Made by a program: the position numbers. Shown here in pieces: positions 6,001 to 27,000 of a stretch of 64,000 nucleotides of DNA. The stretch is taken from assembly GCA_047601445.1 (NCBI GenBank), contig JASGJH010000001.1, forward strand, positions 160,001 to 224,000. Direction: 5' to 3'. Every line of letters begins with the position of its first letter. The stretch's first letter is position 1. The stretch comes from Myxococcales bacterium (GTDB taxonomy: Bacteria; Myxococcota_A; Polyangia; Polyangiales; DASUME01).

Positions 6001-9000
6001 TCGGCGCGCGGTTGGTCGGCCATGGCTTGCGTTCGCTCAAAGCTAACGGACGTCGCTGTCCGAGGGGCGCCCGGAACAGACCTTGGTGCGCGGTTCGAAT
6101 CAGTATTGGTAGACGTTAGCGAATCGCAATGCGCATCATTTCAGAATGCCAGAGGAAAATTCAGCGACAAGCGTCGGCAAGGAACTCCCGGAAACTGCGA
6201 TACAACGGCTGTCGGAGCGTCTAGGAGACCCCTTTCTGTTCTCGTTCGTCACCGCGTTCATCATCTTCGGGTGGCGATTCTTCTTCGCGCTCCTCCACGT
6301 GCCCAAGATTGGCGCACTCAAAGACCTCACGAGCGCAGTCAACAGGGTTTCCGAGTACCTGGACGATTGGGTGTTTTGGAAGGCGTTCTCTGTTGGTCTC
6401 TTCTTTGCTTTTGTCTGGCCATGGTTAGGCGGTGCGCAGCGACTTTATCTGGCATGGAAAGAGAGGCTTGTCGGCGACTGGGAGCAGTCGATTCGTTCAA
6501 ACAAGACCATCACTCTTGCAGCACTGAGGGAACATCCAGAGTTCGTCGCGCTTCAAGGAGAGCACCAAGCGCTAGTTGCATTCGCCGCAAGGACAGCCGG
6601 ATGCGTCATCGACGAGAGCACCGTCTATCTGGTGGCTTATGCGCCACCGGAAGGAGTGCAAAAATTTTCGTTCGTCGAGGTGATTCGCGGATCCGAGTTG
6701 GCCACGACACGGCGCGTGAAATTAGGTCCACAGAGAAGCAGCAATGCAGAAGTTGGTTTTGTCGTCGATTCCATCAAAGGGCCGACAGGGCGGTCGATGG
6801 TCATTCTCGCGCTCAAATCGATGCAGTTCAGATGGCCGGATAACGTCGAGTTTGCCCCCATGACCTCTGGACCAAAAGGGGATGGCTTGGCGGGAGTGGG
6901 CCAACATTCCTGGGACATTCCTCGCATTGAACCCGTATCCGATCATCCGCAGAGGATAGGCAAGCTGGTCACTACGTGAAGGGTCCGAGCTTTGTTGAAG
7001 CCGAGCGCACGCGCATCGTTCGCGACCAATAACTGGCAGCGCTGCAGGCGCAAACCTCTGGAATCGCCCAATGAATTGGTCCTCAGTTTACATGGCATCG
7101 ATTCTGCGGCGTGGCGTCATCACCTGCCTCTCAGGCTTGTTCAGTCGCCGACCAAAGCGATGTGATCGGTTCCATATCGCGGCGCGTGATCAGTCACAGC
7201 AGGCCTGAGGGCGGCCGCGGCGCGAGGGTACTCCCGCACGCCGGCGAGAACCGATCCCGCCCGCAGGTTGAGGAGATCGCTGAAGCACACCTGCACCAGC
7301 CCGCCACTGAATCGGACGGTTGTCGCAATCGGCAGACCGCACGTTGGGCTCAACTTGCAGGGAAGGGCGCTTCAGCCGCGCGCCGCGCGGTCGACCTCAG
7401 GAGTGCGCGCACCCAGGCGTGCCAGCGTGGCCAAGCGCAACGACGAAAGCGAGACCGCGGTGGGAACGCTGGGCTCGGGAGGTCCGAACATCGTGAGGAC
7501 CTTGCCGTCCATGGTGCCGAGCAGAATCTGTCGTATGGGCCCCTGCATTCCGCGCGGGATCTCCAAGCGATTGACTTCGTACAGCGAAGTGCGCGCGAGC
7601 GCGTGGCCCTCGGGCGTAGGCCCCTGGTGCGCCATTGCGAATGCTGCCTGGAAGCGCATCCATTCGTGGAGCGTAGGCATCAGATCAGCGATGCTCATGC
7701 GCGCGCGAACGTGCAGCCAAAATGCGAGCAACAGGTCGCCGTCGTGCTGCGAGAACGGCTGCGCTCCGAAGCGTCGATTGAAGCGCAGCGGCTCGAGGAA
7801 GAACACCGACAGCATGTAACGATACTCGTCGTTGGTCGCCGTCACGCCTCGATGCTTGATCGACATGCGCTCCAGCGCAGCCCGGCCCGCCTCGCTGTCG
7901 GTTCCTTCCAGGTCAGGGGCTTGATCAGCTCGCGCGTGCGCTGCAGACGTTGGAAGGCCGCTCTGGAGCAGAGAACCGGCATACAGACGTGAAACCATCG
8001 CTGCGATGCTCATCGTGCGCAACAGCCCCAGATACGGCCGAGGCGGAAGTCTCGGGGGTGGCGCTGGTAGTAAATTGCCACGACGAGACTTTGGCGTTCG
8101 AGCACCGACGATCACGAACTGCACACCCGCTTCGCCCAAGCACTGGAGCATGTCGGCGAAGTCTTCGTTTAGTTCAGGTGCCTTGGCCACGGCGCCGCAC
8201 CCATCGGACTGGAGTTTCATTGCGCGAGTAGCTGGGAATCTCCTTGCCCATGCTGGCCCAGGCATCCTGCGTCATCCGCCAGACCATGCCGACGCGCTCC
8301 GCAGGGCTTAGTGCGCTCAGATCATCCTCAGGTTCTGCCCCAAGGGCGAACTGTCGGATCTGCCACGTCTTGCGGGCAGCAGCGCGCTTGCGGCGATCTT
8401 CCTCGCCCTCGCTCATTCTCAAACCCTACCAAGTTGTACCGCGATCCCGGTACCGAGCAGGCTCGAGCTCACAAGAGCCGTGGCCCGACAGGCGAGCACG
8501 GATGTGCCCATCCGTGCCGGCGCAGCCGAGACCATTCGAGCCCACTCGAGCAAAACCCACTCCCGAAAGCCTCCACCACTCTCCCCACCGTCCCCACCGC
8601 ACCCCCTCTTTGCGTTCCTCCAACCGAACGCGCCCAGCTCTCCTCACCGCCCGTCCGCCGCAGTAAGGATCGGCGGCACCTGTGGCAGGCCACAGGTATC
8701 GCCGATACGTCCGCGAACTGCGGTCGAGCGCAGGGGCGAGGGGTGGGCTTGGGGGCGCCCCAAGTCGCTTTGTCGAACTCGTGTCCTCACCGTTGACTGG
8801 GCCACCAAAGCGCGGCCAACTCCCATCTCACCGCCCCCCACGACGCGACAAAGCGCAGCGCGCCCCCAAGCCCACCCCTCGCCCCGAAGCACCGGCCAAG
8901 ACCGATGGACAACGCGCGGGCAGAGGAGCGGAACTGGGAGCGCTCGGTGGAGGAGCGCACCAGGGAGAACGTTGTGGATTGTAAAGAGTGGTGGAGGCGC

Positions 9001-24000: not shown

Positions 24001-27000
24001 GGCTCGCTTCACCGCTATCGACCCTTTATTTCGCAATCACGCCGAGTCGAACTCGTGACCGCTAGTCAGTTCAATTACGCCTCCAGGTGAGCACCGACTG
24101 GCTCAGCCCTTCGACGGCTCCTTTGGCTTAATCAGGCCGCGAGAGCGTATGCGTTATCGTTCGCAATTGGTTTTCTGAAGGTATTTACGTCGTCTTCAGC
24201 CGACAGACACGCAACCAACACTGCACAGCCCCCGTCGAAACCGTATCGCCCCCTTGCTCCATGTTCTGCTTCGAAACTGAGCGTTCACCCGACTGTGTCG
24301 CACTGGATCGAGACCCGCGATTGAGCGCCGATCTGTGCTCGGATGAGCAGGGTCACAGTAGCCACCGATAGGGGGCCGAGCAAGCTGTGAAGCCCTTTAC
24401 AGTTTGTCCATTTTTTGGCGCAGACCGTGGCCATGTGTAGGCCCATCGGTTACAACGATCCACGTGAACACGACGCCACTACCCGCCAAAAAAGACGTCG
24501 CTCGGGCCTTGTTGCTGCGCGGAAGCGTGTTCATCCACCTGGACCCGCGCCGCTCCGGAGTTCTGGTGCCGGCTCGCCTACGTTCGCAAGCTCAGGTGGT
24601 GCTTCAGGTGGGCCTCGACATGCCCGTGCCGATTCCGGACCTGCGCATCGACCAGGAAGGTGTGTTCGGGACTCTCTCGTTCAAGGGCGTGCCCTTCGCG
24701 TGCTTCGTGCCGTGGGGCGCGGTGTTCGCCCTGGTCGGCGAGGATGCCAAGGGCATGGTGTGGCACGCGGACATGCCGGCCGAGATTGCGGCCGAGGTCG
24801 AGCGCGAGGGGCGCAAGCGCGCCGGTGGCTCGGCCGAGCTAGTCGAGCTCGATGCTTTTCGGGCTGCGCGCCCCCCTGCACCGGAGCCTGGACGCTTCGA
24901 TGTGCGTCGCTCGGGAGCCGTCGCGAAGCGCAAAAGCGATCGTCCGCCGGCCTGGGATCGTCCCTCGTACCTCCGCGTGGTGAAATAGGTCGCCAAAGTG
25001 ACTGTCTCGCGGGGTCGCGATCGGGAGGCCGGTCGTGAGCCCGCGCGATGTCGTTTGGGGTATCCAAATTCATTTCCGCGCCCCACGCCGAACGACTAGC
25101 CCTGGCTATGGGCAGTCGAGTCGGCTGAACGTCGTTTAGTAGGGCAGACGCCGCTAGCTCGCTTGCGGGGCAAATTGGCTTAAAAACAAGACGCAGCCAG
25201 CGTTTCCACTGGCTGCGTCAACCCCCTGATTGGCTTACTGAGCCCCCCGTACTTGGCTCGGCGTCCCCTCGGAGAGGCACTAAAGCATGGGCCCGTTTGG
25301 GGTGCAATGCGGAAGTGCAAGCCCATTTCACTTTCGAACTGAAGACGTTTAGGATGGCTCGCGCTGGGGAGCAAGGTTGCTTACCAAGCGGGCGTTTTCT
25401 CTCACATGTCTTGGCAATTCCGTGCGGTTTCGCGGACACTCGAGAAACGAGGACGCAACATGGCGCTGACGCCGCGTGACCCAGATGAGTTGCTTCGAGA
25501 CGTACCTGTCTTGGCAAATTTGCCAGCCGAGGACTTGGCAGCGCTAGCCCAGGCTGCAGAAATGCGAAAGGCGACGAGAGGCGAACCACTGTTCCAAGAA
25601 GGGGCTGTGGCAGAAGGGCTGGTCGTTGTTCGCACGGGCGAGGTGAAGCTCGTGAAGAGCGCCAAGGACGGCCGCGAGCAGATCCTGTATTTGGCGCGCC
25701 CGGGGCGTCCCATTACGGAGGGGCTGCGCTTCGATGGCGGCACTTACCCCGCAAGCGCGATTGCGATGCGACCGACCACGGTGCTGATCATCCCGAATCA
25801 GATCATCTCCGAAGTCGGAGACCGCAAGCCGCACGTCTTGCGCGCGATGGTGGACCTGCGCGCACGACGTACGGACCGCTTGCTCACGCTGATCGGGGAC
25901 TTGTCGCTGCGCACGGTGCCGGCACGCCTGGCGTCGTTCCTGTGTTCGCTGTCGGCCCAGCGCTCTGCGCGCGGAGAAGACGCGCGAACCTTGGTGCGCG
26001 ACTTGACCACCGAGACGGTGGCGGGACGACTGGGCACGGTGCGCGAGGAGATTTCGCGCGGCCTGGCGTTGCTCGAGCGAGAAGGGGCCCTGAAGGTGAC
26101 GCCGGACGTGGTAGTCATCGAGGACCTGGAGCGCCTCGAAGCCATCGCGTTTGGCTCGCGGCGTAGCTAACCCGCGCGTGTCATCCCCACCGACCTCGGA
26201 GAGTGCCCGCAAGGACGCTGAGCCTCGCGCTCGGGCGCACGCGGCCGAGGCAGCACGCGGGGAGCTCGGGCGCTGGATCCTGGCGTGCTGCGGGGCCGCG
26301 TTGCTGATGGCCCTGGCGAGTCAGTTCGAGGCCGTTTGGGTCACGCCGCGCTGGGGGTTCTTCCTGGCTTTCGCGGTGGTCGCGCTCCAAACGCTGTTGG
26401 TTGCTTGCGTGGCGCCGATGCGGCGCTTGTGGCTTCCGCTGGGGGCACTGCTGCTCGCGCTGGCTTTCACGGCTCTGCGCGGAAGCGCGCCGGGCGCCTG
26501 GACGGGGGCGGCCCTCACCACCGCGCTGCTGGCGGGGGGCACGGCGATCGGTGCCGCGCTGGGTGCGCGCATCGAACACGCGGGGCACCTGCTGGCGGTG
26601 GCCTTGGTGAGTGGCTTGGCCGATCTGTGGAGCGCCCATGCTGGCCCGACGGCGCGCATGGTGGCCGATGCCATCAGTCGACCCGAGAGGCTCGCCCTGT
26701 TCGCGCTGCCGTGGCCGCTCTGGGGGACGGGTACCATTCAGCCCGTGCTGGGCGTGGGCGACGTCGTGTTCGTGGCGCTGTACCTGGCCACGTTTCGGCG
26801 GCACGGGCTCTCGCGCGTGCGCGCATGCGTGGGCATGGGCGCGGGGTTCGCGCTGGGGCTCGGGCTCTTGCTGGGCCTGGAACGCGCGGTGCCGCTGTTG
26901 CCCTTGTTGGGAGCGGGTGCGATTTGTGCCGACCGCCGGGCGCGTGCGCTCGAGAAGCGTGAGCTCGTCTTGGTGGTGGCGGTAACAGCTGTACTTGCGG

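Follow-up and report, generated by a model that had tools for sequence, protein, structure and literature searches.

A tmRNA-integrated island of a Myxococcales bacterium carrying a PD-T4-10 pair and a HerA-NurA-methyltransferase cassette, a candidate methylation-based cousin of the Tdp restriction system

TdpABC is a phosphorothioate-based restriction-modification system from thermophiles (An et al. 2025, Nat Chem Biol, as cited in PMC12914056 and PMC13223576), of which TdpA and TdpB constitute the restriction half (PDB 8wet, 8wfd; PMC12914056). NurA as a defence effector is therefore already known, as the restriction arm of TdpABC is a HerA-type ATPase with a NurA-fold nuclease, and PMC12977600 likewise discusses HerA-NurA in a defence role. 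A preliminary description of the locus studied here had presented both this role and a restriction-like use of the end-resection pair as new, which does not hold given these precedents. Another comparable system is ICEth1 of Thermus thermophilus HB27, which according to PMC5365140 spans 14,857 bp, encodes a XerC-type integrase and occupies the 3' end of a tRNA gene. Its operon is given there as Tth111II, a NurA-like protein (377 aa), TdtA of the FtsK/HerA family and a PF01555 methylase (410 aa). Transjugation, that is, DNA donation, needs both NurA and TdtA (PMC5365140), and loss of the methylase is reported to have minor effects only (PMC5365140, PMC7767461). As far as these accounts go, ICEth1 is the sole studied operon with these three components and it serves DNA donation, which counts against reading such a set of genes as a restriction system.

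The window that we analysed is a 64-kb stretch of a Myxococcales genome, and it contains an island of 14.9 kb that is bounded on each side by the 3' end of the tmRNA gene, the two copies being identical over 25 nt. The displaced copy, attL, lies at 8987..9014, and attR lies at 23895..23922 within the 3' end of the gene itself. The direct repeat is identical at 25/25 positions (8987-9011 and 23895-23919) and at 27/28 when extended to 28 nt; the window holds exactly two copies of its 19-nt core, where chance would give 0.10, and 0/100 shuffles reached two. The integration target, ssrA, was located by ARAGORN at 23897..24253 on the minus strand, with the tag peptide ANDNAYALAA. A tyrosine integrase on the plus strand (22797..23891; PF00589 E 3.9e-24, phrog_1 E 4e-53) ends 5 nt from the tmRNA 3' end. 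On the same strand are encoded a Prim-Pol primase-polymerase with RepB_primase_C (21500..22543; PF09250 E 6.7e-28), an AAA_25 ATPase, RepA/DnaB-like and part of the replication module (19990..21018; PF13481 E 4.8e-21, with matches to PHROG primase/helicase families) and a weakly matched HTH_17/MerR-like protein (18242..19003; Pfam E 2e-4, phrog_66 E 4e-4), possibly an excisionase or a regulator. The G+C content per kb is 0.569-0.663 in the island versus 0.64-0.72 at 26-35 kb of the window. The island has a Prim-Pol/AAA_25 backbone and is mobilised by its integrase, with the 3' end of ssrA as insertion site. The earlier proposal of a tmRNA-integrated element of lower G+C is thus borne out by the exact repeat, the shuffles and the composition, and the integrase, Prim-Pol, AAA_25, HerA/DUF87 and NurA (451 aa) genes that it listed were all found again by Pfam matches.

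The three genes of the cassette lie on the plus strand. The first encodes a HerA-type hexameric translocase ATPase of 724 aa (11524..13698), which matches PF01935 (DUF87) above its cut-off and the PADLOC HerA models with a best E of 2.8e-19; the NCBIfam equivalogs for anti-phage HerA score 42 and 28 bits on it, against cut-offs of 800 and 850. Its Walker A (GMTRSGKS; K256, S257) and Walker B (VEEAH; E606, E607) motifs are invariant in an alignment of 36 homologues, and Pfam scans gave no family for residues 1-230 and 300-560. TdpA is both its best sequence match in the PDB (E 7.7e-17) and the top Foldseek match of its AF2 model (pLDDT 84.5; E 9.5e-23, TM 0.69-0.75 on target). The second gene encodes an RNase H-like, NurA-family nuclease of 451 aa (13688..15043), recognised by PF09376 (41.4 bits, cut-off 21; E 1.5e-10, model positions 3-245 of 254). 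The residues D60, D265, E306, K307 and H314 are invariant in its alignment, as are the cysteines C177, C185 and C199, and C201 is nearly so. This protein gave no sequence-level match in the PDB, no match to any PADLOC 2.0 model, and no family in Pfam scans for residues 155-237; Foldseek with its AF2 model (pLDDT 84.1) placed chain 8wfd_G of the TdpAB-DNA complex first (E 5e-8), followed by archaeal and Deinococcus NurA. Both proteins are full length and keep every invariant alignment column. As described earlier, nurA starts within herA, with an ATG at 13688 and an 11-nt overlap; a further overlap of 4 nt (ATGA) puts the methyltransferase start on the nurA stop, and this arrangement of reading frames suggests a single operon.

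The cassette thus has the composition of TdpABC, in that the gene of a DNA-modifying enzyme adjoins those of a HerA-type hexameric ATPase and a NurA-fold nuclease. In the island this enzyme is a PF01555 amino-methyltransferase (SPPY), whereas in TdpABC it is the phosphorothioation enzyme TdpC. Identity to the Tdp proteins is 14-18% in the fold alignments; the island HerA is about 140 aa longer than its TdpABC counterpart, and the NurA is about 90 aa longer, with a Cys4 insertion. The cassette had previously been called a sibling of Sir2-HerA and DUF4297-HerA, which also combine a HerA-family ATPase with an effector and have similar folds (E about 1e-17 to 1e-18). The comparison is looser than the evidence permits, because Tdp is closer. 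The effector here is NurA, not Sir2 or DUF4297, and a methyltransferase belongs to the unit.

The methyltransferase is encoded in two pieces on the plus strand. The N-terminal piece (15040..15414; PF01555 E 1.3e-11) contains the SAM-binding motif DPFAGRGTS, and the C-terminal piece, in the -1 frame (15390..16160; ORF 15411-16160), matches the PADLOC MTase_II model PDLC03325, spans profile positions 98-361 and carries a conserved NQMRQ block and the motif IV TSPPY. The two pieces belong to one gene whose reading frame is broken by 1 nt at a T5 run (15385..15389, plus strand) inside the conserved stretch LPxFF|HxCF, which confirms the earlier caveat that the gene is split; in 62 homologues it is a single ORF. 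The SPPY of motif IV hints at N4-cytosine as the methylated base. The blocks FAGRGT, NQMRQ, TSPPY and DQWLRLW are all retained across the two pieces and HerA and NurA are intact, so the break should be either a very recent mutation or a homopolymer sequencing error. The genome has no close second copy of the methyltransferase; a classical restriction-modification system in this state would attack its own host, and hence the break would be an artefact, or else the system works unlike a classical one. The window's copy might also be a decaying relic, its marking arm lost through a real frame shift and the cassette non-working in this strain. Decay is seen elsewhere in the family, in the form of internal stops in HerA (L049, L062), split methyltransferases (L029, L054, L070), truncated NurA (L044, L071) and an IS element inside the herA of Deferribacter. 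Here, however, a single break is the only damage to an otherwise complete set of genes, and we consider the relic unlikely.

A search with the island NurA gathered 71 loci from many phyla. A PF01555-type methyltransferase lies directly downstream of NurA in 65 of them (62 as one ORF, 3 split), and HerA lies upstream in every locus where the contig reaches far enough. NurA identity is 60-69% across records titled with many phyla, and the cassette NurA is a distinct NurA subfamily, for which 933 out of 1.84 billion representatives match at E<=1e-3. The family had been thought unseen in Myxococcota; this is refuted by a relative of 72% identity in Pyxidicoccus sp. and by another of 34% in 1/400 other sampled genomes of the phylum. 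In Myxococcota NurA is rare rather than absent. The patchy, horizontally spread distribution across phyla speaks for the defence reading. More distant HerA-NurA pairs have a D12/PF02086 methyltransferase (PD-Lambda-5_B-like) directly upstream in two loci (L067 and L078, the latter from a Myxococcota genome). The gene order is HerA-NurA-PF01555 methyltransferase on a Halorarius archaeal plasmid and methyltransferase-HerA-NurA on a Deferribacter megaplasmid. Such a swappable methyltransferase class beside HerA-NurA is a modularity typical of restriction-modification systems, and it supports the restriction reading.

These distributions bear on a housekeeping role, in which HerA-NurA would resect or repair DNA ends, or process replication intermediates of the island, with the methyltransferase as an unrelated passenger. 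PMC13748450 assigns the archaeal, Deinococcus and Thermus HerA-NurA to end resection or repair; they share with the island the two families, gene adjacency and the fold of solved NurA and HerA proteins, and the island does have a replication module. A passenger, however, would not be retained in 65/71 loci and exchanged for another class in distant relatives. Moreover, the Pfam scan of the island found neither Mre11 nor Rad50, and, unlike the end-resection complex, the cassette is mobile, sparsely distributed and set among defence genes. Prim-Pol and AAA_25 are absent as its companions in the flanking-ORF comparison of the other loci, which weakens the earlier suggestion of a part for HerA-NurA in replicating the element itself. 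We think that a housekeeping function is very improbable.

The setting among defence genes was assessed with the two ORFs that flank the cassette on either side, for which PADLOC matches (E<=1e-5) numbered 50/249. ORFs called alike from nine arbitrary stretches of 20 kb gave 5/139, and Fisher's test returns an odds ratio of 6.7 with p 3e-6; this control comes from the window's genome alone, a different taxon from the compared loci, and part of the flank matches are generic (E1-E2, C3a186). The flank matches include Kiwa, type I/II/III restriction-modification, Hma, TmtA, Cas1 and Nhi/AbiO-like genes, and in the window the defence neighbour is PD-T4-10.

The main rival is a DNA-donation module as in ICEth1, in which a HerA-like pump would export DNA and NurA would trim it, spreading island or host DNA instead of giving immunity. 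Judged from the account in PMC5365140, the two elements share the size range (about 14.9 kb), a tyrosine recombinase, an insertion site within the 3' end of a gene for a small RNA and, likened by protein type, a NurA-like nuclease, a HerA/FtsK translocase and a PF01555 methylase; the Prim-Pol and helicase backbone also resembles ICETh2 as presented in PMC7693054. The gene order differs, however: ICEth1 is given as NurA-TdtA-methylase with a type IIG restriction enzyme ahead, and its NurA-like protein and methylase are smaller than the island's. The type IIG enzyme is needed as nicking partner in the Thermus model, and Pfam, PADLOC and NCBIfam scans of the island found none. Transjugation further relies on natural competence of the recipient, peculiar to Thermus. 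The 65 cassette loci have unrelated flanks, an all-against-all comparison of flanking ORFs giving no further common neighbour (the biggest cluster covers 5/71 loci, mobility and replication genes included), and just 9/60 loci have a tRNA gene within 8 kb. The nearest solved relatives belong to the restriction machine TdpAB. Overall, we regard DNA donation as improbable.

In our opinion, the cassette is best explained as a modification-dependent, anti-phage restriction system built like TdpABC. To this reading, taken jointly with the view that the island carries two defence cargoes, namely this three-gene system and a complete PD-T4-10 pair, we assign a probability of roughly 0.6. The methyltransferase would mark host DNA, and a complex of a HerA hexamer and a NurA dimer would thread onto DNA that lacks the mark and has free ends, for instance phage DNA during injection or replication, translocate with ATP and degrade both strands. 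Phosphorothioate reportedly slows or stops the TdpAB motor, and by analogy methylated sites might slow or stop this one on self DNA. It counts against this proposal that a ring translocase contacts the DNA backbone, while the proposed mark is a base methylation. If the frame break is real, this copy would be without its marking arm, yet it might be tolerated because a circular chromosome has no ends. The anti-phage role assigned earlier is thus partly supported, by the conserved cassette, the exchangeable methyltransferase, the defence-rich flanks and the proximity to Tdp.

The other cargo is recognised by comparison with PD-T4-10, presented by Vassallo et al. 2022 (PMC9519451) as an abortive-infection pair of toxin-antitoxin type, with A the putative antitoxin and B the putative toxin. 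Only the B-like gene had been noted before; it was found again (9360..10352, minus strand, 330 aa; PADLOC PDLC04024 E 3.7e-33), and directly upstream on the same strand lies an A-like gene (10413..10808, 131 aa; PDLC04023 E 5.4e-21), so that the system is complete. The order, adjacency and orientation are those of PD-T4-10, whereas the matches span 87/131 residues of A and 231/330 of B, the two genes are 60 nt apart without overlap, and the host is far from E. coli. A 93-aa ORF without family match (10805..11086, minus strand) overlaps the start of the A-like gene and may not be a real gene.

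The genes herA (11524-13698) and nurA (from an ATG at 13688 to 15043) overlap by 11 nt, and they are followed by a PF01555 methyltransferase gene that is read in two frames (15040-15414 and 15411-16160). The HerA protein, of 724 aa, scores 36.7 bits against PF01935 (cut-off 23.2), and its Walker residues K256/S257 and E606/E607 are invariant in the alignment of homologues. By sequence, its best match in the PDB is TdpA (8wet_A, E 7.7e-17), the HerA-type ATPase of the phosphorothioate-based restriction-modification (R-M) system TdpABC. TdpA is also the top Foldseek match of the predicted structure (pLDDT 84.5; E 9.5e-23, TM 0.69-0.75 on target), which matches HerA hexamer folds and places Thermococcus HerA, DUF4297-HerA and SIR2-HerA below TdpA. 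Residues 1-230 and 300-560 have no Pfam family at E<=5. The NCBIfam equivalogs for anti-phage HerA proteins are far under their cut-offs (NF042943, 42.4 vs 800 bits; NF042944, 28.1 vs 850 bits), and neither Pfam nor PADLOC detects a Sir2 or DUF4297 effector beside HerA in the island, the integrative element that carries the cassette, which leaves the latter outside the Sir2-HerA and DUF4297-HerA systems. MADS was also considered and set aside, as HerA gives only a partial mad8 match (E 7e-11) and no further mad model matches in the island.

NurA, of 451 aa, matches PF09376 with 41.4 bits (cut-off 21) over model positions 3-245 of 254, and it is recovered above the cut-off, with 40.4 bits, when the whole genome is searched with this family. 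Sequence searches of the PDB gave no meaningful match, either with the single sequence or with a profile. The AF2 model, obtained from a 20-sequence alignment (pLDDT 84.1), has the RNase H-like NurA fold, and its top fold match is chain G of the TdpAB-AMPPNP-DNA complex (8wfd_G; E 5e-8, TM 0.56 on target), ahead of the NurA proteins of T. kodakarensis, P. furiosus, D. radiodurans and S. solfataricus, which are matched with a Foldseek probability of 1.0. In the same alignment D60 (in AIDGS), D265 (in LDGP), E306, K307 and H314 are invariant and E110 is nearly so; AIDGS and LDGP would correspond to the 'DG' catalytic motifs I and II of NurA, following the available text of a review (PMC13748450). 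The cysteines C177, C185 and C199 are invariant as well, and C201 nearly so, within a stretch (residues 155-237) that has no Pfam family at E<=5. These four cysteines may form a zinc-binding insertion, and thus a candidate DNA-reading element.

A TdpA-like ATPase and a TdpB-like nuclease are therefore encoded side by side in overlapping genes, as in TdpABC. The latter is described, in the available text of two reports (PMC12914056; PMC13223576), as the third R-M system based on phosphorothioate, whose modification is made by tdpC alone. Judged by family matches and by the clustering of flanking ORFs, the cassette has a PF01555 methyltransferase instead of TdpC and no other conserved neighbour, and it lies outside the Tdp systems because the modification gene differs. 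With classical R-M systems of types I-III it shares a DNA methyltransferase that has motifs I and IV, here frame-shifted. It departs from them in the other parts: its nuclease is NurA and its motor is HerA, and no restriction subunit was found in the island as a PADLOC REase, Pfam ResIII/HsdR or PD-(D/E)xK match. The cassette belongs to the NurA and HerA families and fits no named system, and the full-text literature other than subscription journals yielded no named HerA-NurA-methyltransferase system. A role in defence has been proposed for archaeal HerA-NurA in the text available from one article (PMC12977600), and is asserted for the bacterial pair in the portion at hand of the review (PMC13748450).

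We think that the cassette most likely works like TdpABC, by analogy with which methylation would replace phosphorothioate: the methyltransferase would mark self DNA, and HerA-NurA would load on the ends of unmarked DNA and degrade it. In the work of An et al. 2025, phosphorothioate on self DNA reportedly blocks TdpAB translocation. If our reading is true, the pairing of HerA motor and NurA nuclease is no oddity of thermophiles bound to phosphorothioate, but a general chassis for different DNA-marking enzymes across many phyla and archaea. Moreover, the cassette would be a compact three-gene candidate defence system, whose NurA side is missed by current defence-finding model sets, and it would pose the mechanistic question of how base methylation is read by a ring motor that tracks the backbone. 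The reading would also offer an alternative account of a DNA-donation operon of Thermus.

The wide distribution of the cassette as a unit can be appreciated from several searches. Of 8000 candidates scored in a protein search with NurA, 1601 matched at E<=0.001, and the best 120 of these 1601 matches, leaving aside the window's own sequence, are 62-76% identical (72% for Pyxidicoccus sp.). The NurA profile matched 933 of 1.84 billion cluster representatives at E<=0.001, 368 of them at E<=1e-30. With one genome searched per species, 71 NurA loci were confirmed, which by record title belong to Acidobacteriota, Actinomycetota, Chloroflexota, Cyanobacteria, Planctomycetota, Gemmatimonadota, Poribacteria, Patescibacteria, Armatimonadota and Proteobacteria, among others. 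Within the window's own phylum, a NurA relative was present in one of 400 other sampled genomes (34% identity). In tblastn searches with the window's proteins, all complete loci have the matches to HerA, to NurA and to the two methyltransferase halves lined up, at 44-69% identity, and the remaining island genes were not found in them. The PF01555 partner of NurA is the third conserved gene, present here as well as in 65 of the 71 loci; clustering of all flanking ORFs gave no conserved fourth gene, the largest cluster comprising 5 loci. Of 60 loci, 9 have a tRNA gene at a distance of up to 8 kb and none has a tmRNA gene; the tmRNA site is a property of the window's island, not of the cassette. 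Among plasmids, 5 of 72,556 records hold a relative, all of them distant (23-32% identity) and none from Thermus, and none of seven pattern matches on viral contigs was confirmed as a relative. Several of the related cassettes show decay: an internal stop is present in HerA of L049 and L062, herA is interrupted by ~2.5 kb in L024 and by an IS200/IS605 element in L077, NurA is truncated in L044 and L071, and the methyltransferase is split in L029, L054 and L070.

The methyltransferase of the window carries motif I (FAGRGT, within the SAM-binding motif DPFAGRGTS) in its first piece and motif IV (TSPPY) in the second, which is in the -1 frame, and PADLOC MTase_II models match this frame-shifted gene. 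When it is aligned with ten homologues, which read LPxFFHxCF at this point, the first piece ends at ...LPTFF and the second resumes in register at ...(F)RHCFTLRVRQYLCAAR, the break falling in a T5 run at 15385-15389. When the genome was searched with a profile built from 58 homologues, the gene was hit in two frames (profile positions 2-112 and 98-361), and no close second copy came up. Among the 71 related loci the methyltransferase is a single ORF in 62 and split in 3; the other 6, where the pair with NurA is missing, are contig ends, truncated loci or distant relatives. Programmed frameshifting or phase variation at the T-run was considered and rejected: the FF codons are conserved, the run at these codons measures 2 (12 loci), 3 (14), 4 (4), 5 (9), 6 (12) or 7 nt (7) in the 58 homologues, so that it is no conserved slippery site, and 62 homologues are one ORF. 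Since no conserved block is damaged on either side, the break would be either a very recent mutation or a homopolymer error; for 14800-16000, neither a public sequencing run nor an RNA holder was listed. A profile search of the PDB with the methyltransferase matched only the SAM-binding motif of m4C and m6A enzymes alike, and is thus uninformative on base specificity. The predicted complex of NurA and methyltransferase, modelled with the pair of a related locus (L005), had a score of 0.00, which counts neither for nor against the reading.

A broken methyltransferase beside intact herA and nurA is, together with data from Thermus, the main tension in the Tdp-like reading. The chief rival explanation is that the cassette serves in DNA donation, as does an operon of ICEth1, an integrated element of Thermus thermophilus. 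In the available text of its description (PMC5365140), a Tth111II-NurA-TdtA-PF01555 methylase operon lies on a 14,857-bp element at a tRNA 3' end, and DNA donation requires NurA and TdtA; a partly available report (PMC7767461) attributes only minor effects to the methylase. By the published description (PMC5365140, in part), the tdtA operon combines a NurA-like, a HerA/FtsK-like and a PF01555 methylase gene on an integrated element, as in the window, although the gene order differs. Moreover, the type IIG restriction enzyme of the ICEth1 operon has no counterpart in the window's island by Pfam, PADLOC or NCBIfam. The Tdp-like reading would be relieved of the tension if the frame break is an artefact, or if HerA-NurA needs DNA ends and an unmarked circular chromosome therefore survives.

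We tentatively propose, giving it roughly three chances in ten, that the cassette stands for a class of immunity that is widespread and has no name yet. In it, DNA would be destroyed from its free ends by a ring translocase-nuclease, and methylated sites would be brakes. Such sites would not be protected cleavage sites but Chi-like 'self' signals, and loss of the methyltransferase would be tolerated, as there are no ends on a circular chromosome. This would account for the frame-shifted methyltransferase with intact herA-nurA and for the viable ICEth1 methylase mutant. It would further imply that 'transjugation' in Thermus comes as a by-product of such a defence machine.

Distant relatives and the genes around the cassette bear on the link with modification and defence. 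In L078, a locus of another Myxococcota genome (G003), the genes for a 726-aa HerA and a 451-aa NurA are immediately preceded by that of a D12-class adenine methyltransferase (PF02086; PD-Lambda-5_B model, E 2e-75), and L067 has the same D12 methyltransferase-HerA-NurA order. A haloarchaeal plasmid carries HerA-NurA-PF01555 methyltransferase, and a Deferribacter megaplasmid methyltransferase-HerA-NurA with an IS element in herA; on a Nostoc plasmid the order is HTH-HerA-NurA-AbiTii. A methyltransferase linked in varying orders and from varying families is as expected for a modification-restriction pair. Two further loci are followed by HsdR and HsdM (L068) or by HmaA and TmtA (L069). In L078 (G003:C174:3000-14796), whose NurA is 34% identical, HmaB and HmaC of the Hma defence system lie immediately upstream of the three genes.

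Two ORFs of >=100 aa were taken on each side of the cassette and scored for PADLOC matches at E<=1e-5, which were found for 26 of 150 ORFs (L002-L045) and 24 of 99 (L045-L072). They include Kiwa, R-M types I/II/III, Cas1, TmtA, Hma, Nhi/AbiO-like proteins, a dCTP deaminase model and several PDC candidates. As a control, nine 20-kb stretches were chosen arbitrarily from the window's genome; their ORFs, called alike and excluding three of >1500 aa, gave 5 matches in 139. The difference (Fisher odds ratio 6.7, p 3e-6) is supportive and no measured enrichment, because the control is one genome only.

As an integrative element, the island combines a backbone of Prim-Pol and helicase with two putative defence cargoes. 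A preliminary description had it bounded by a 25-nt exact repeat of the tmRNA 3' end, and this is borne out by ARAGORN, a repeat finder and the gene calls. The sole tmRNA gene found lies at 23897-24253 on the minus strand, and a 28-nt direct repeat that duplicates its 3' end, exact over the first 25 nt, occupies 8987-9014 and 23895-23922; the 19-nt core of this repeat occurs exactly twice in the window, against an average of 0.10 in shuffles, which never reached 2. Beside the target gene, a tyrosine integrase (22797-23891) ends 5 nt short of the tmRNA 3' end, and the element also encodes the Prim-Pol (21500-22543), an AAA_25 ATPase (19990-21018), a weakly matched HTH_17 protein (18242-19003) and several ORFs without a family match. 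G+C per kb is 0.57-0.66 in the island vs 0.64-0.72 to its right. A promoter and terminator scan of 10700-16900 gave no signal above chance. According to the available text of PMC7693054, ICETh2 of Thermus has a comparable backbone of integrase, Prim-Pol and helicase, its att sites copy the 3' end of a small-RNA gene, and its Prim-Pol is dispensable for replication and a barrier to environmental DNA.

The second cargo is a PD-T4-10 pair on the strand opposite to herA-nurA. Its B component (9360-10352; PDLC04024, E 3.7e-33) had already been recognized, and component A (10413-10808; PDLC04023, E 5.4e-21) had been overlooked; A is upstream of B on the same strand, 60 nt apart, and the island annotation for this genome thus gains a second, complete defence system. 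PD-T4-10 is described as abortive infection of the toxin-antitoxin type, with B as toxin and A as antitoxin, and the available text reports toxicity of B, its neutralization by A and phage protection for the E. coli system only (PMC9519451).

Some minor observations concern the rest of the island and its surroundings. The stretch 16157-19830 (~3.7 kb) holds only ORFs unmatched in Pfam, NCBIfam, PHROGs and PADLOC (16259-16819, 16777-17286, 17593-18387 and 18874-19830), possibly not all of them genes. An empty att site was not found in 20 relatives, 9 of them of the same genus, where the left flank (7100-8986) has no counterpart. This flank is repetitive: the genome carries, ~9.42 Mb along, a copy of 7372-8099 with 87% identity, and 8709-8904 has several copies of 69-80% identity elsewhere, with short inverted partial self-copies at 8733-8775 and 8846-8885. 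Further to the left, a large ORF on the plus strand (1-4803) with an open 5' end, of at least 1600 aa, matches TcdB_toxin_midC (E 1.4e-31) and an RHS repeat, and resembles an Rhs/Tc-type polymorphic toxin gene.
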